A model generated the notes under the pieces. The model saw nothing but the letters and a program-made list of their open reading frames with translations, ran no database searches and was not told the DNA's origin. This document shows, piece after piece, positions 13,350-48,971 of a stretch of DNA of 64,000 nt (position 1 is the stretch's first letter; every line of letters starts with the position of its first letter). Position numbers and translations under genes: made by a program. This DNA comes from Candidatus Hydrogenedentota bacterium (GTDB lineage Bacteria; Hydrogenedentota; Hydrogenedentia; Hydrogenedentales; SLHB01): contig CAVUWV010000024.1 of the NCBI GenBank assembly GCA_963745075.1, forward strand, positions 224,001-288,000, given 5' to 3'.

Positions 13350-14195
13350 CCGACCCAAGGCGAAGGTACGGGCGAATCGTTTTAGCAGTTTCCCATGAAG
13401 CCGGGCGATCTTATTTTGGCTGATCGCGGATATTGCGCGGCAAACGGCATCGTGTATGTCGACGCGAGCGACGCCTTTGTGACGTACGCTTCAACCTCAA
13501 CACGTTCCCCTATGAGGACCGTCCGGACGGCCCTTCGAGCTGCTGAGTCGCTTGAAGCGCTTTACGAAAACCGGCGCGATTCGCGATGTGGCCGGTATGG
13601 ATACCCACGGACGAAACGCACAGCGTTGCCGGACGTGATCTGCGTCGTGCGTAAGACTCAAGAAGCTATCCGACAGGCCCACAGAAAACTTCGGCAGCGC
13701 GCGATCTGCAAAGGGTCATAAGCTGCGGCCCCAAACACTCGTCTACGCGGAATACGTCATCGTCTTCACCACCTTTCCCGAAGAGGACTTCTCCGCTGCC
13801 GTCGTGTTGGAATGGTACCGCATTCGCTGGCAGATTGAACTCGTATTCAAACGCTTCAAGCAGATCGCTCAGCTAGGCCACCTACCAAAGCACGACGAAG
13901 AAAGCGCTCAAGCGTGGCTCTACGGCAAACTCTTCATCGCCCTGATAACCGACAAGCTTATCGGTCACGCAAATCGTTTTCCCCCTGGGGATACGAAATG
14001 GACACGCCGCCAGCCCCCGAGTCCGTGGCGTGAGTTCGCCTTCGCCTTCCACCAAGTCGGCGCGCCATCGATCCCGCTGCCCCTGCGCGACGCCATCGAC
14101 AACTGGAACGCGATCGCACGGGCGCTGGCAGAGAAGCCGCGAAACGACGCCTCCAGATGAGCTCTACAATCATTTGAAACAAGTTAGCGCTTATG
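13350..14195 (+). mobile_element. IS4-family transposase remnant (5'-truncated, frameshifted)
   Basis: GDLILADRGY (second catalytic D) and YRIRWQIELVFKRFKQ (YREK motif) in different frames; probable right end agttagcgcttatg. Confidence 0.85.
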
Positions 14196-14725
14196 GGGGT
14201 GCACCCCCTTTTGCTTTTTGACGATTCAAGGGGGGGTGTGCCGATCGCGGAGTGCGGTCCCCGCGGTAGGGGATTTCCAAAAAGCCTCCGACGAAGCGCC
14301 GGCGCGCAAATTTGGGAGTCAAAACACTCGACCGGTCTCGATATCGTGCCGTATGGGGCATTCTCGAAAGACGTTTTCGTCGAGTTTCGGCGCTCCAGAT
14401 CTGTGCTGGGCTTTTTGGAAATCCCCGGTAGCGAGGATGACGGGCGCGTTGGGTGTTGTTTGGCATGGGCGGAGTTGTCCTTACTTATATGGCCCGGGGT
14501 GTTGCACCGAATCAGGCTGGAGTCCGGAGACTGGAGGTCGTAGCGGCCTCCAGTGTACGGAGTCCTGAACGCCAAAGATGTCCGCGGTGTAACGCCAATC
14601 CCGCGACGCCTTCAAACGGACCTGCCGACAAATGACGACAATCCCAGACCATCCATCAAAGAATTCCCGACCGGCTCAATCCGCGTATCCCAATCCGCAA
14701 TCAAGAACGTCCGGTACCACTGACT

Positions 14726-16079: not shown

Positions 16080-16159
16080 CCGTCATCCTGAGCTTGCGAA
16101 GGATCTCATCCTCCCGACGCCCGACTGACCAGAGATCCTTCGCAAGCTCAGGATGACGG
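16080..16159. repeat. REP-like long hairpin
   Basis: ccgtcatcctgagcttgcgaaggatctc ... gagatccttcgcaagctcaggatgacgg, 28-bp perfect inverted repeat. Confidence 0.8.
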
Positions 16160-18458: not shown

Positions 18459-18788
18459 ATGCCAGATCGACCAGCAATTACAGCGGATTTGTACCGAAGG
18501 GTCATGGTTGAGGCAGGCTTTCGCTGCGCTATTCCTACCTGTCAACATCCAGATGTCGTGGTCCATCATATAGTTCCGTGGTCAAAGTGCAAGGAGCACT
18601 CCTTTCCGAATCTAATCGCTCTCTGTCCAAACTGTCACATGCGTGCTGATTTGGGAAAGATTGACCGAAAGGCACTCCGAATGTACAAGGCGCGCTTAGC
18701 TTCCTTGTTCCACTATCCGGACATGGAGCTAGAGTGCGTCGCCGATTCTGCGGCCGCTGACCAACGTGAAGATGTACGCTGCGGATGA
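18459..18788 (+). CDS. HNH endonuclease
   Basis: RCAIPTC...VHHIVPW...NLIALCPNCH, a classic HNH signature. Confidence 0.85.
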   Translation: MPDRPAITADLYRRVMVEAGFRCAIPTCQHPDVVVHHIVPWSKCKEHSFPNLIALCPNCHMRADLGKIDRKALRMYKARLASLFHYPDMELECVADSAAADQREDVRCG

Positions 18789-19698: not shown

Positions 19699-21053
19699 AT
19701 GAAGTCTGAGAAAGCATACATACAGACCTTTGGCTGTCAGATGAACGAGCATGACAGTTTCCGGATGATGGAGGTCTTCGGCCGTGAGGGGTTTCAATTC
19801 ACCCAGAACCCGGAGGAGGCGTCGTTGATTCTGCTGAACACGTGTTCGGTGCGGGAGAATCCGGAGAACAAGGTCTACAGTCTGTTGGGGCGGCTGCGGA
19901 AGTTGAAGCAGCGGGACCCGGATCTCATCATCGGCGTGGGCGGGTGCGTGGCGCAGCAGGAGGGCGAGACCATCCTGAAGCGCGAGAAGACGGTCGACAT
20001 GGTCTTTGGTCCGGACAACTTCTTCAAGCTGCCGGAGATGATCGCGTCGGTGCGGCGGGGCGAGCGGGTGTTGATGACGAAGTGGATGTCCCGCCGTGGC
20101 GGGACGGACCGCGTCCAGAATTTTGTGCCCGAGGAATGGGTCGAAGGCGGGCACGTGGAGGGGTGCAAGGCCTACGTGTCCATCACGAAGGGCTGCGACA
20201 ACTTCTGCACGTTCTGCATCGTGCCGTTCACGCGGGGGCGGGAAGTCAGCCGCGAGGCGGACAACATCCTGCGGGAAGTGCGGGACCTCGTCGAGCCGCG
20301 GCGCGAAGGAAATCTGGTTGCTGGGCCAGAACGTGAATTCGTATCGGGCCCACGACGTGGGGTTCTACGAACTGCTGGACCAGGTGTCGCAGGTCGAGGG
20401 GTTGATGCGCGTGCGGTTCACGTCGCCCCATCCCAACGATTGGAACAACCGGTTGTCCGACCTCATGGCCGAACGGCCGACGATCTGCAACCAGTTGCAC
20501 CTGCCGTTCCAGGCGGGGTCCGACCGCATGCTGCCGATGATGAACCGGGGCCATACCATCGACGAGTACCTGGCAGAAAGTGCGGTACATGCGCGCGATC
20601 AACCCGTCCATCGAAATCAGCACGGACCTCATCGTCGGGTTCCCGACGGAGTCGGACGACGATTTTGAGGGGACGCTCCGCGTCGTCGAGGAAGTCGGGT
20701 TCAGCCAGATCTTCCCCTTCAAATACTCGACGCGTCCCAACACGAAGGCCGCGAAGATGGAGGACGACGTCCCCCGCGCGGTGAAGGAAGAACGGCTGGC
20801 GCGGGTCATCGCGTTGCAGGAACGCATCACCCACGAGCGCACGGCGCACTACGTCGGCACCGAGCAGGACGTCCTCATCGACGCCGCCAACCCGCGTCGA
20901 CGCAACGCCATGAACGGCCGGACGGATGGGTTCCGCCCGATCACCGTCTCCGGCGGCGATTTCGAGATCGGCGATATGGTCCGGGTCCGCGTCACCGCCG
21001 CCAACTTGCATTGGTTGGAAGCGGAACCGGTGAGCGTGGCCGCAGGCGTCTGA
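19699..21053 (+). CDS. miaB: tRNA i6A37 methylthiotransferase MiaB (two frameshifts, near 20295 and 20578)
   Basis: TFGCQMNEHDS, NTCSVRE, GCDNFCTFCIVP, LLGQNVNSY, RFTSPHP, STDLIVGFP and a C-terminal TRAM domain across three frames. Confidence 0.92.
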
Positions 21054-21061
21054 ACCGGACG

Positions 21062-21228
21062 GAAGAACATCCCCCTTGATCCCCCTTCAAAGGGGGAATT
21101 CCGAACACCCAAGTCTGTTGGCATACGTGCGGCCGAGTGACAACGGTAAGGTTCTGGTAGCCGACCACGCAACGCAAAGCGTTGTGTATCATTCCCCCTT
21201 TGAAGGGGGATCAAGGGGGATGTTCTTC
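21062..21228. repeat. ~166-bp inverted-repeat element, copy 1
   Basis: gaagaacatcccccttgatcccccttcaaagggggaat ... attccccctttgaagggggatcaagggggatgttcttc. Confidence 0.9.
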
Positions 21229-21301
21229 TCGTGTTCTTTGCGTTCTCCTGGTGGCAATTTCTCCCTTCACTTCACCGGTTTCGGTCGGTATAATCCCGCC
21301 T

Positions 21302-22150
21302 ATGTCTACACAAGCCAGTATCATGGACGGCAAGACCGTCTCCAAGCAGATCCTCGACAATTGTGCGAACCGGGTGAAATCCATCGTGGAACGGACCGGC
21401 GTGACGCCGTGTCTGGCGACGGTGTTGGTGGGGAGCGACCCGGGCTCGGCGACCTACGTGAAGATGAAGGTCCGGCGGTGCGAAGCCGTGGGCATGAAAT
21501 CGTTGCGGGTCGACATGACGGAGACCACGACGACCGAAGAACTCGTCGCGAAGATCGCGGAGTTGAGCAATGACCCCGCCATCCACGGCATCCTGCTGCA
21601 ACACCCCGTGCCGAGCCAGATCGACGAGCGTGCGGCGTTTGAAGCCATTGTGCCGAGCAAAGACGTAGACGGGGTGACCATCCACAGCTTCGGGACGACG
21701 AGTTTCGATCTGCCCGGCTTCGGGTCCTGCACGCCCGCGGGCATGATGCGGCTGCTCGACCACTACAAGGTGGAGATTAAGGGCAAGCATGCCGTCGTTA
21801 TCGGGCGCAGTCCCATCCTCGGAAAACCCATGGCGATGATGCTCCTTGCGCGGCATGCGACCGTGACCATCTGCCATTCCCGCACGCAGAACCTTCCCGA
21901 TGTATGCCGTCAGGCGGACATCCTCGTCGCGGCGGTCGGCAAGCCGGAGTTCGTCAAGGGCGACTGGGTGAAGGAAGGGGCGATCGTGCTCGATGCCGGG
22001 TACAACGAGGGCAACGTGGGCGACGTCCATTACGAAGGTGCGGCGGCGCGCGCGAGCATGATTACGCCGGTGCCCGGCGGGGTCGGTCCCATGACCATCG
22101 CCACGCTCATCGACCAAACCGCTGACGCCGCAGAACGGCTGATCAAATAG
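21302..22150 (+). CDS. folD: bifunctional methylenetetrahydrofolate dehydrogenase/cyclohydrolase
   Basis: IMDGK, YVKMK, KDVDG, CTPAG, GRSPILGKP and TPVPGGVGPMT motifs. Confidence 0.97.
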   Translation: MSTQASIMDGKTVSKQILDNCANRVKSIVERTGVTPCLATVLVGSDPGSATYVKMKVRRCEAVGMKSLRVDMTETTTTEELVAKIAELSNDPAIHGILLQHPVPSQIDERAAFEAIVPSKDVDGVTIHSFGTTSFDLPGFGSCTPAGMMRLLDHYKVEIKGKHAVVIGRSPILGKPMAMMLLARHATVTICHSRTQNLPDVCRQADILVAAVGKPEFVKGDWVKEGAIVLDAGYNEGNVGDVHYEGAAARASMITPVPGGVGPMTIATLIDQTADAAERLIK

Positions 22151-22151
22151 G

Positions 22152-22316
22152 GAAGAACATCCCCCTTGATCCCCCTTCAAAGGGGGAGTTTTGCTCATGT
22201 CCGTGTGTCGACTTTTACGTCGTACTTTGTCTCGAAGCGGGATCGTTGGCGACCCATAACGCAACGCAACGCGTTGCGGAGAATTCCCCCTTTGAAGGGG
22301 GATCTAGGGGGATGTT
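22152..22316. repeat. ~166-bp inverted-repeat element, copy 2
   Basis: same terminal arms as copy 1; immediately upstream of the DUF559 gene. Confidence 0.9.
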
Positions 22317-22376
22317 ATCTTATCTATCACAGATGGTTAAGCTTGCCTGCCGAACCGAGGGGGGACTTACGAATCA

Positions 22377-22781
22377 GTGTCGAGGCGCAATCGGATAGTG
22401 GCGTACAACGCTAAACTGCGTCCGCTGGCGCGCGCGTTGCGAAAGAATAGTCCGTTGGCGGAAATCGTACTCTGGCGATCATTGAAGGGAAAAGCGCTGG
22501 GATGTGAGTTTCACCGGCAGGTTCCAGTTGATGAGTACATAATCGATTTCTTCTGTCACGAACATTTGATCGCAATTGAGATTGATGGTTCCAGTCATGA
22601 TCCGCTTGGCGGATATGCCCGCGATCAGGCCAAAGACGAACGCTTGCGTACTCTCGGGGTACGTGTATTGCGCTTTCGCGATACGCGAGTACTCAAAAAT
22701 GTCAAAGGTGTCGTTGATGAGATTCGCGGCGTTCTCGACAAAAGTGAAACCGGCGATTCACGACCTGTTGGATTGCAATGA
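22377..22781 (+). CDS. DUF559 (Vsr-like endonuclease domain) protein
   Basis: ARALRKNSPLAEIVLWRSL...FHRQVPVDEYIIDFFC...IEIDGSSH...RDQAKDERL...VLRF. Confidence 0.9.
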   Translation: MSRRNRIVAYNAKLRPLARALRKNSPLAEIVLWRSLKGKALGCEFHRQVPVDEYIIDFFCHEHLIAIEIDGSSHDPLGGYARDQAKDERLRTLGVRVLRFRDTRVLKNVKGVVDEIRGVLDKSETGDSRPVGLQ

Positions 22782-22945
22782 AGAACATCCCCCTTGATCC
22801 CCCTTCAAAGGGGGAATTTGGCTTATCCTCGTTTGAGGTGATTTACGTCTGGATGTGATCCGAGAGTAGGTTGTCGCTGGCCCCTAAGCGCGACGCAAAG
22901 CGTCGCGTACAATTCCCCCTTTGAAGGGGGATCTAGGGGGATGTT
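22780..22945. repeat. ~166-bp inverted-repeat element, copy 3
   Basis: same arms; overlaps the DUF559 TGA stop codon. Confidence 0.9.
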
Positions 22946-23045
22946 TTCTTAACGCAACTTTGCGCCGGGAAACTCAGATTGCGTGAGCATCCCCGGCCCT
23001 GGGAAGGTGGGATTAAGAGCGAGTCACGTGCGGTAGGAGTTTGGC

Positions 23046-24538
23046 ATGGAAACGGAAGTTCTGATTGCAACGAAGATTGAGGCAGACGGTCCGACGGCGT
23101 TGGTGGTGCCGGTCGCGGAAGACCATACTGGGCCGCTGTTCAGAGCCACTTGGACGAAGCGGACGCCCGTGTCGCCGCGCGGGTACTCGAATCCGGCGTG
23201 TTCAAAGGGAAAGTGGGGGATGTCTATTGCTTCCCCGCCGTGGCGGGTCCGTACGTGTGCGTGGTGTTGGTGGGGCTAGGCAAGGGCGACGTTATCGACG
23301 CAGAGCAACTTCGCCGCGCGGGCGGCAAGGTGGTGGAGTCGCTGGGTCGCCACCGCATCGAGACCTGCGCGGTCGATTTGTCGAAGAACGCGGGCTGGCC
23401 GTGCGAGGCGCTGCTCGAAGGCATCGCTCTCGGACAATACCGTTTCGAGAAGTACAAGAAACCGTCGGAAGACGAACCGCAAATATCTGTCAGCAATTTC
23501 GTGCTGCTGAACGGCGATGACGCGGTCAAGGAGCGGTGTTGCCACGCATTGGCCTTGTGCGAAAACGCGAACTGGGCGCGCGACCTTGCCAACCGGTCAT
23601 CCAACGACCTCACGCCGGGCCAACTGGCCTTCGAGGCGCGCGGTATTGCCGAGCACCACGATTGTTGCAGCTACGATTTCATCGACGAAGGTCGCATGCT
23701 CGAACTCGGTATGAACGCCCTGCTCGGCGTGACGCGCGGGGCGACCGAACCGGCCAAGGTCATCATTCTCAATTACCATTGCTGCCCCGACGCGCCGACC
23801 CTGGCCATCGTGGGGAAGGGCATTACCTTCGATACCGGCGGCGTCAGCATCAAACCGTCGCAGGGTATGGAAGAGATGAAGTTCGACATGTGCGGTGCGG
23901 CGGCGGTGCTTGGCGCGATGCGCACCGTCGTGCAGACCCGCCCGGGGATCAACGTGGTCTGCGTCGCGCCGGCCGCGGAGAACGTGGTCGGGTCCCGCGC
24001 GCAAAAGCCCGGCGATATCGTGCGCGCCTACAACGGCAAGACCATCGAAGTGAACAACACCGATGCCGAAGGACGGCTCATCCTCGCGGACGCGCTGGCC
24101 TACACGGCAGAACAGTATCAGCCCGACAAGATGGTCGATCTGGCGACCCTGACCGGCGCGGCTATCGTCGCCCTGGGCCATTACGCGGCAGGCGTCATGG
24201 CTACGGATGATGCGTTATACGCGTCGTTGCAGGCCGCGGCAGACGCCACTGGCGAACGCATCTGGCGGTTCCCCCTGTGGGACGACTACTCGAAACTGCT
24301 TGAAGGCACCCACGCGGACCTCAGCAATATCGGTCCGCCCAAGGAAGCTGGTACAATAATGGGTGGCTGTTTCCTGAAGGAATTCGTCGGCGACACCCCG
24401 TGGGCGCATATCGACATCGCGGGCACGGCCTGGGGCGGGAAAAACATCCCGTACCTGAACCCGAAACATGCCACCGGCTACGGTGTGCGCATGCTCTCAG
24501 AATGGATACGGCGAGAAGCCGGCATTGTGAACTCTTAG
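23046..24538 (+). CDS. pepA: leucyl aminopeptidase (M17), frameshift near 23140
   Basis: VGKGITFDTGG, MKFDMCGAA, NTDAEGRL, DLATLTGA and WAHIDIAG motifs; N-terminus in ORF 23046. Confidence 0.93.
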
Positions 24539-24569
24539 GTCGTTCGATAGTCAATCCAAGGATTTGAGG

Positions 24570-24735
24570 GAACATCCCCCTTGATCCCCCTTCAAAGGGG
24601 GAATTCGTCGCAATGCTTTGCGTTGCGGTTCAGAGATGCTGGGTACACGCCTCGTAAGCCAGAGTCATTCGGCAACTACCGAAAACTACGATGAGCCCAA
24701 TTCCCCCTTTCGAAGGGGGATCAAGGGGGATGTTC
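24570..24735. repeat. ~166-bp inverted-repeat element, copy 4 (core in opposite orientation)
   Basis: same arms; the internal gcaacgcaaagc hairpin lies on the minus strand. Confidence 0.88.
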
Positions 24736-24821
24736 TGCGGGAAAAAGTGGCTTCGGAAGTGTATCCTTAATCGCGGAGAATTGTATTGCGCATTCAGGCA
24801 TTAGAGCATCCTGGTCAAAAC

Positions 24822-47416: not shown

Positions 47417-48971
47417 ACCCCAAACGTTGGTATCGTCTCTTCGCATCCGAGGCGGTTCACCTCGTCCCTGATTGCGATTTTGTCAGTCATGGTGGTCACT
47501 GTGCTCAGTGCGGGATGTGGCGTTTCGAGCAACGACGTGGCCCAAGCCGCGCCGCGCGAACACGCAGCGCACACGCACGCCGAACGTGATCCAGACCGGT
47601 TGTGGTGCAACGAGCATGGCGTGTACGAGGACGAATGCACGATCTGCCATCCGGAACTGGCTGCGGCTGCCGAGGAGCGTGATCCGAATCGTCTGTGGTG
47701 CAACGAGCATGGTGTCTACGAAGACGAGTGCACGATCTGTCATCCCGAGATGGCGTCGGAGTCTGAGCAAGACGACGACGGGCACGGGCACGACAACCAC
47801 TCCGGAGGTGCGGAGGTGCTTTGGTGCAAGGAGCACGACGTGGCGGAGGGCGAGTGCGGCTTGTGTCATCCAGAACTGGTTGCAGACCTCGAACCCGGCC
47901 AAGGGATGAAAGTCCGATTCGAGTCGGATGCGTCCGTCACGAAGGCGGGGGTGGAAGTAGGCCGCCCAAGCGAATCGACCATGTTGAGACCTTCGAGGTC
48001 CTGGGACAGGTGACCTTCGACCGCAACAAGCTCGCCATGATCACGCCCCTTGCCGGCGGTGTGCTGGAAAGCGTCCACGTGGATGTCGGGGATCGGGTCA
48101 AGAAAGGCGACCTCATGGCCCGGGTCAATTCGCCCGCTATCGCGGAGGCGAAGAGTGCTCTGGTGCGTGCGTTGACGCAGGAAGAGTTGCACCGCCGGAC
48201 CTTCGCCCGCGAGAAGGATCTCGTCGAGCGCGAGATCCCGCACGACAGGATTTCGAATCGGCCAGAGCCACGTACGACGCAAGCCGGAGCGAGACGCAAC
48301 AGGCCGGCCAGAAATTGTCGAACTTCGGCTTCGGTGAAGCCGAAGTGGCGGAAGTCGCGCGGACCCGGTCGACCACGTCAGTGATGCCCGTTCGAGCGCC
48401 GTACGACGCGACGGTCGTGGATCGGGATGCCGTCGCGGGCTCAGCGGTGGAAATGGGGATGCCGCTGTTCCAGGTAGCAGACCTGCGCACCATGTGGCTG
48501 GAGTTGTCGATTCCGGAAAGCCATCTCGGAGTCCTGAAACGCGGCATGCCCGTCTTCGCTCGCTTCGAGGCGTACCCTGGCGACGGCTTTACGGGAGAAC
48601 TCACGTGGGTTGCCTATCAGGTTGATGAAGAGACGCGCAAGGTTGAGGCGCGGGCCGTGCTTCCCAATCGAGAGGAACGGCTCCGGCACGGAATGTTCGC
48701 TCGCGTCCAGCTCGCGGCCGGCGAGGAAACTGCAGGACTGACCGTGCCGAAAGACGCGGTTCAGGTGGTGGACGGGAGCTCCGTCGTCTTCCGAAAACTC
48801 GCGGACGACCTGTTCGAAAGCCGGGTCGTTCACGTAGGCCCGGATAAAGATGGGCAAGTGCTGGTTCTCGCGGGACTTCGGCCTGATGAGGAGATCGTGA
48901 TAACTGAGAGTTATTTGGTCAAATCGGAATTGTTGAAAGCCCGGCTTGGCGCGGGTTGCACCGAACACTAG
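47400..48971 (+). CDS. czcB: RND efflux periplasmic adaptor (CzcB-like) lipoprotein with three WC-x-EH...C-xx-CHPE repeats; several frameshifts
   Basis: LSAGC lipobox; VDVGDRVKKGD, VRAPYDATVV, LFQVADLRTMW and LRHGMFAR across frames. Confidence 0.82.

Follow-up and report, generated by a model that had tools for sequence, protein, structure and literature searches.

A DUF559 nuclease gene as the likely partner of dispersed BoxC-type inverted-repeat elements in a Candidatus Hydrogenedentota genome

The subject of this study is a family of short inverted-repeat elements and a DUF559 nuclease gene that lies between two of them in a 64,000-nucleotide stretch of a Candidatus Hydrogenedentota genome (contig CAVUWV010000024.1, positions 224,001 to 288,000; hereafter the window). 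Judged from their sequences, the elements are non-coding DNA repeats, each consisting of two BoxC/triplex-type arms around an inherited, drifting core. The data point, with some reserve, to the DUF559 protein as the likely partner enzyme of the elements, in a system that would resemble REPIN-RAYT and be run by a PD-(D/E)xK nuclease. To our knowledge, neither an enzyme nor a function has been found for the BoxC/PIT repeats, which were already known in the 1990s, and the large DUF559 nuclease family has no defined substrate.

Four elements are present in the window where an earlier reading of the letters alone (the sequence-only reading) had placed them, and the arms, the inner hairpin, the inverted fourth copy and the enclosed gene are all as it described. 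Copy 1 occupies 21062..21228 on the plus strand (arms 21067-21097 and 21193-21223, a 95-nt core, inner hairpin 21168-21186), as do copy 2 at 22152..22316 (arms 22157-22187 and 22285-22315, a 97-nt core, hairpin 22260-22278) and copy 3 at 22780..22945 (arms 22785-22815 and 22914-22944, a 98-nt core, hairpin 22889-22907). Copy 4 is inverted and lies at 24570..24735 on the minus strand (arms 24572-24602 and 24702-24733, hairpin 24609-24627). The arm cores are 31 bp long and stand 95-100 nt apart, each arm carries a CCCCCT-TCAA-AGGGGG hairpin, and a 19-nt inner hairpin lies 6 nt from one arm. Exact 30-mer matches to the arm number five in the window, compared with none in 100 shuffles. Copies 2 and 3 bracket the gene for the Vsr/EDxHD-type nuclease (22377..22781, plus strand; PF04480, 94.6 bits; 134 aa), the stop codon of which overlaps copy 3, as had been noted before. 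The GTG start was placed by the ATG at the corresponding position in a related genome, G003. The right arm of copy 2 is oriented tail-in toward the gene.

The source genome (G000; 6.8 Mb, 89.7% complete) contains 202 arms at about 120 loci, counted at up to 4 substitutions, and one DUF559 gene; this genome-wide count, proposed earlier as a check, bears out the idea of dispersed inverted doublets paired, in the manner of REPINs and RAYTs, with a single non-HUH nuclease gene. The arms form 80 inward-facing pairs (160 arms), 69 of them 150-166 bp long. The other 42 have a partner hairpin within 150 nt in 24 cases, at 94-101 nt in 21, and this partner is often a variant arm with a small inserted hairpin, giving about 90 standard-length elements in G000. 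Composite forms of 228-230 bp have two cores around a common central hairpin. By a rough test, a long open reading frame (ORF) spans only 6 of the 69 elements, so nearly all are intergenic. The arm reads CCCCCT-TGAT-CCCCCT-TCAA-AGGGGG, which is the three-block architecture of the BoxC/PIT/TM motifs and fits the description of these in PMC4666352 (three blocks, a stem of 6-15 nt, loops of 1-6 nt). Its consensus starts GAAGAACATC and lacks the GTAG tetranucleotide foot that precedes the palindrome in REPIN-RAYT repeats (PMC3184786). Over the 69 aligned copies, conservation is mostly 96-100% in arm columns, 58-96% in the hairpin and about 50% in the remainder. The same arm occurs with other fixed core lengths elsewhere: mostly 41-43 nt in genome G015, 28-29 nt in G026 and, in one metagenomic group, 65-66 nt. 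That core length is constant is therefore a feature of the lineage and not of spacers. Arm patterns had no match in viral contigs, nor had the arm-plus-hairpin pattern in metagenomes.

Among the enzyme genes checked in G000, DUF559 alone is close to arms. Its single match lies 101 and 49 bp from them, and none of 16 Y1, 10 DDE and 1 short GIY-YIG matches is within 1.3 kb of an arm, the nearest Y1 match being 1373 bp away. The association extends to homologues. Sixty-nine of the best 80 of 595 confirmed loci had full flanks, and at 61 of these a triplex-type motif stands within about 350 bp of the gene, the control counts being 2 of 34 for distant windows and 2 of 207 for shuffles; the enrichment of arms beside DUF559 genes on which the earlier reading depended is thus present. 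The motif is on both sides of the gene at 36 of the 69 loci, and at 34 of the 36 it is tail-in as in G000. The covariation of nuclease phylogeny with flanking arms, which had also been suggested as a check, was found in a quick tree on 118 columns: all 14 cases of type-C arms fall within one 20-row protein clade (Shimodaira-Hasegawa-like approximate likelihood-ratio test, SH-aLRT, 95) that covers at least 5 phyla, none of 60 rows outside it has them, and the same phyla outside the clade carry other arms. Within the limits of a short alignment, this pattern favours protein-arm co-evolution over host kinship.

The protein itself retains Vsr/EDxHD catalytic residues. In an 86-row alignment chosen from 120 listed of 865 matches, E29, E68, D70 and H74 show no variation and D57 and D83 hardly any (at least 90% conserved), and the catalytic E, D, H/D, H, D set, when mapped by spacing to the residues of Vsr and Caulobacter VsrA, appears to be present. 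The AlphaFold model (mean predicted local distance difference test score, pLDDT, 86.6) has as its top structural matches the Neisseria protein 3hrl and the catalytic domain of I-Bth0305I (3r3p; E 5e-4 by profile and 1e-3 by fold). The gene is free-standing and intergenic, and its product has no extra N-terminal region and no intron or intein. Its neighbours are folD and pepA; no cytosine methyltransferase gene lies beside it. The closest named relatives among the matches listed are Candidatus Hydrogenedentota records; a search for related loci with the single protein sequence as query gave no matches. I-Bth0305I is a dimer that nicks DNA and makes short 5' staggered cuts of 2 nt (PMC3239194), and staggered nicking by the present protein is plausible by this analogy.

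Comparison within the genus indicates that the gene moves. At folD-pepA, G000 and G003 carry the gene and elements, G005 has elements without the gene, and the site is empty in G001 and G002 (the assembly of G004 does not cover it); the insertion between folD and pepA proposed earlier is supported by these two empty sites. In G005 and G001 the gene is at other loci, again between two near-identical elements, and the G001 copy has an internal stop. Genomes of the genus with an intact gene have 202, 234 and 194 arms, the one with the stop-broken gene 26, and one in which no gene was found 34. Overall, arms number 194-234 with an intact gene and 26-47 without, counts that fragmented assemblies and variant arms limit. 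Turnover is fast, since 29 of 52 filled sites of G003-G005 that were mapped to G000 are arm-free there. A second DUF559 gene, about 42% identical and absent from G000, is flanked in G003, G004 and G005 by a different BoxC-like arm pair, and canonical BoxC-like arms flank a DUF559 group of greater distance in G003-G005 and G016. At the miaB end of G005, the last ~75 nt of miaB occur a second time after an arm and 35 nt of core, which suggests recombinational capture from a G000-like donor.

The cores had been called largely different from one another. They are indeed diverged at equal length; they are not unrelated sequence, and the four in the window are distant homologues with mutual identities of 0.44-0.60. 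Across G000, pairwise core identity averages 0.47, compared with 0.43 for shuffles, with a continuous tail up to 0.97, and the leave-one-out profile score exceeds 0 for 58 of 69 cores, compared with 16 and 17 of 69 in controls. For the orthologue set, 33 of 47 pattern-matched elements were recovered in G003, 15 of 20 in G004 and 25 of 42 in G005. In 18 orthologous pairings with G000, identity is 97% for arms and 51% for cores, and fourfold degenerate sites of the neighbouring folD and pepA differ by 35-42%. The folD-pepA site is occupied in a relative too, one with 35-41% divergence at fourfold sites, and copies are spread genome-wide; the earlier picture of a gene seeding copies nearby is not supported. 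Inverted cores occur at 5 of the 16 orthologous sites that could be decided, and at 3 of 15 among the close genomes G003-G005. The core of copy 3 is flipped relative to its G003 orthologue (identity 0.64 inverted, 0.42 direct), and copy 4 has an orthologue in G003 with a core 0.75 and arms 0.95 identical. Some cores appear sometimes to have been replaced: one pair has a core identity of 0.56 between flanks of 0.98 and 0.77, and the G003 element upstream of the nuclease gene has a core resembling that of copy 4 (0.72) over that of copy 2 (0.44). On these alignments, the cores are inherited and homologous, drift at a roughly neutral rate and flip in place, and the arms are actively kept at old sites, whether through selection or through repair.

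Hypermutation of the cores was considered and is unsupported, core divergence being about 0.07-0.25 by position against about 0.15 in the nearest flanks; the transition share is ordinary (0.52 versus 0.49-0.51 in 21 orthologous pairs among G003-G005), and core change may be mildly accelerated. The inner hairpin shows 21 compensatory cells among 67 G000 copies, and its G-T and A-C mismatches are balanced at 15 versus 12, which fits a DNA-level structure or self-correction. We take its GAA/AAA loop to resemble those of stable DNA mini-hairpins.

The best-preserved copies are longer than the arm-to-arm element. They measure 273 bp and have outer segments of 55-58 bp, with direct CTNAG repeats at both ends in three cases. 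The youngest G000 pair is 97% identical with precise ends at two unrelated loci, has common flanks of 58 and 55 bp and bears CTAAG at both ends of both loci, the element being in opposite orientation relative to that word; the third case, a G003 unit, has CTGAG/CTGAG ends. Sites that are arm-free in G000 typically also lack about 90 bp beyond the arm-to-arm element. The outer-segment family was found on 45 of 346 flanks, compared with 0 of 346 in each of two controls, and a genome-wide profile scan located 22 places, 17 of them beside arms, 1 mirrored and 4 weak. In the window, copy 4 continues through such a segment at 24734..24790 (minus strand). Over 53 nt this segment has 81% identity with the youngest pair's flank, and it scores 38.8 bits in the leave-one-out profile; the place given earlier for copy 4 was right, its end too short. 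The outer ends form short terminal inverted repeats. The same arm also occurs in an unrelated metagenomic lineage, in which units of 186, 186 and 280 bp have inverted TCAGA-like end words, and all 3 with both ends intact, among 7 examined, are flanked by ATA/ATA. Copies in G026 have common outer segments too. A 3-bp duplication would be the simplest reading of these few cases.

Long target duplications next to the 165-bp unit were rejected, only 1 of 129 elements lying above the 99th percentile of controls, and comparison with empty sites gave a weak shift (mean z 0.86 versus -0.04). For the three full-length G000 copies, relatives with empty sites are too diverged for base-level junctions, and one empty site agrees with a 273-bp insertion in length alone. 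The outer segments had no match to cores in fixed register, and homology between the two was also rejected. The mirrored outer segment, at C1:401257 (minus strand) of G000, uses the left CTAAG of the youngest copy, as if that copy had inserted at the end of an older armless one.

These features can be joined in one scheme. The nuclease is predicted to bind the arm hairpins and to nick DNA. If such nicks were often repaired from the partner arm or from a further copy, old sites would retain intact arms, and the same route would flip or replace cores. Rarely, paired nicks with a 3-nt stagger would release the whole ~273-bp unit, and its move would leave a 3-bp duplication (C-TNA-G in G000). Joining would require host repair enzymes, because no strand-transfer chemistry is known to us for this nuclease fold.

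Several observations weigh against assigning this role to DUF559. No motif was found at 8 of the 69 homologue loci, and kin in the protein tree are not independent. Equal frequency of elements in genomes without DUF559 had been named as a result that would count against the pairing, and it was seen in part: DUF559 of this type was not found in G002, G015 and G026 (93%, 98% and 99% complete), which keep 34, 47 and 36 arms. Inversion between 35-bp inverted repeats requires no dedicated nuclease. Variants common to both arms of one copy number only 9 of 114, which is weak for arm-to-arm correction; most G015 elements viewed do have variants that match between their two arms. Only 13% of flanks have a detectable outer segment, end pentamers match in 2 of 9 copies with both segments and not in the 7 others, and the third direct-repeat case has a disrupted middle. 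A 3-bp duplication also fits IS5-type transposases, and an insertion sequence (IS) in G000 has a CTTAG/CTTAG end context like that of the 273-bp unit. This IS, at C11:187525-188854, ends in perfect terminal repeats of 16 bp, and short derivatives of it lie at C1:359595 and C21:42976; we take it to be of the IS5/IS1031-like family.

These last points raise the question whether the 273-bp unit is an ordinary MITE (miniature inverted-repeat transposable element), moved in trans by an IS5/IS1031-type DDE transposase, with the arms as cargo and DUF559 as a passenger between arm pairs. The shared C-TNA-G context of the 3-bp duplication in the presumed IS1031-like element and its derivatives, the short terminal inverted repeats at the outer ends and the 10 DDE matches in G000 all speak for such a MITE. 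However, the terminal repeat of the C11 IS is unlike the outer ends, and no autonomous IS sharing the unit ends was found in the 89.7% complete G000 assembly. Moreover, the scan for outer segments led mostly back to arms (17 of 22 places), outer ends decay while inner arms are conserved, which is the reverse of a MITE, and the same arm is bracketed by unrelated termini in other lineages. The adjacency at 61 of 69 loci and the match of clade to arm would also be left unexplained, and we regard the MITE explanation as unlikely. Slightly less probable still is that the arms are host-useful DNA structures under selection and DUF559 a domesticated, non-spreading hairpin or mismatch nickase, with spread and flips due to ordinary recombination. 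Arms intact at orthologous sites across deep divergence, arms persisting in genomes in which no gene was found, the apparent capture at the miaB end of G005, and the proposal of a Caulobacter DUF559 protein as a T:G-mismatch repair enzyme (PMC12907096) are all in keeping with host use. It accords poorly with the fast presence/absence turnover at the 52 mapped sites, with a 97%-identical pair that has precise ends at two unrelated loci, with the missing methyltransferase gene and with the lack of promoter or terminator activity of PIT motifs in earlier tests cited in PMC4666352.

The sequence-only reading had also allowed that the fixed-length cores might be acquired sequence or structured RNA, that is, spacers or guides used by the nuclease. 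Constant length and a conserved inner hairpin with compensatory changes would suit this view, but it is largely refuted and we consider it very improbable. The cores are homologous to one another over a continuous range of identity and gave 0 of 81 genome matches away from arms by BLAST; phage matches were absent for all four window cores, and no meaningful plasmid match was found for those of copies 2 and 3. As for RNA, core folding has a z of about -0.3, the hairpin mismatches are balanced, elements show no strand preference relative to co-directional genes (18 versus 19), and Rfam has no match over the elements. The system differs from a CRISPR-like array in the same respect, with cores related to each other and no foreign source matched in these searches.

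Partnership of DUF559 with the elements thus remains the reading we prefer, and it can be set beside known systems. With REPIN-RAYT it shares inverted doublets in which conserved arms enclose a highly variable spacer (bioRxiv 10.1101/2021.07.10.451892, PMC3116915), extragenic location, about 100 elements per genome, one enzyme gene flanked by repeats and long residence. It differs in its enzyme, a PD-(D/E)xK Vsr-like nuclease (PF04480) in place of the HUH tyrosine transposase of RAYT, in arms without the foot, in a gene that changes locus within one genus, and in best-preserved units that reach 55-58 bp past the arms with short end duplications. It is therefore REPIN-RAYT-like in its working and, by enzyme, foot and gene stability, not a member. 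BoxC/PIT/TM_ECO repeats likewise have arms with two C-rich blocks and one G-rich block, intergenic location, inverted pairs and raised local variability (PMC4666352); the elements here differ in having shorter blocks, of 6 nt, and an inner hairpin in a core fixed at 97 nt, and the main text of that paper, in which the word "endonuclease" does not occur, proposes no enzyme partner. Vsr and Caulobacter VsrA share the fold class and catalytic-residue spacing (PMC12907096, PMC3424549), whereas here the gene is bracketed by repeats with no cytosine methyltransferase alongside. I-Bth0305I, the best characterised structural match, has the same EDxHD catalytic domain (PMC3239194) within 266 aa; here that domain stands alone in 134. 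Caulobacter CIR and Neisseria NIME/RS are also intergenic two-armed repeats of 100-200 bp with unexplained mobility (PMC2229807, PMC3184786), a likeness drawn from descriptions in reviews and not from sequence. DUF559 genes are enriched among predicted programmed inversions (odds ratio 14.3; PMC9881135). No published link of DUF559 or Vsr-like genes to such repeats was found in the literature searched, which was mostly non-subscription and without supplements. New here are cores that are inherited and flip, arms that persist at old sites, and a longer unit whose ends are duplicated.

The host genes around the cassette are folD on its left (21302..22150, plus strand; PF00763/PF02882) and, on its right, a pepA ORF for an M17 aminopeptidase (23150..24538, plus strand; PF00883), with mtaB farther downstream and a MiaB-like gene upstream. 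The pepA ORF is not in frame with the likely start of the gene at 23046, and the miaB-like gene (19699-21053) has two single-base indels relative to G003, near 20296 and 20575; both are probably assembly errors. The miaB-like stop lies 8 nt before copy 1, at a site where G003 has no element and G005 a partial one. At positions 21229-21262 lies the right half of another inverted repeat; G003 and G005 have that repeat whole, and copy 1 stands in place of its left half. Elsewhere in the window are a perfect 28-bp inverted doublet at 16080-16159, presumably of CGTC-REP type, with 5 arm matches in the genome; a small HNH endonuclease gene at 18459-18788, in a group of unassigned ORFs upstream of miaB; a DDE transposase fragment at 13675-13941, near an inverted pair at 14258-14437; and, at 47582-47885, three 85-bp direct repeats inside a gene, apparently encoding Cys/His-rich units.

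Pairing BoxC/PIT repeats with DUF559 gives each a test. It predicts that the arm is the recognition site, that the mobile unit is about 273 bp and not 165 bp, and that cuts fall at C-TNA-G about 58 bp outside the arm. If the partnership is true, a 134-aa nuclease of restriction fold performs the job of a transposase and is a local recombination engine at about 120 intergenic sites. More tentatively, DUF559 may represent a third transposition chemistry for miniature bacterial repeats, in which a stand-alone Vsr/EDxHD nuclease would recognise BoxC-type arms, cut tens of bases outside them with a 3-nt stagger, copy arm-anchored units and swap cores, and this would explain the origin and upkeep of BoxC/PIT repeats across phyla.

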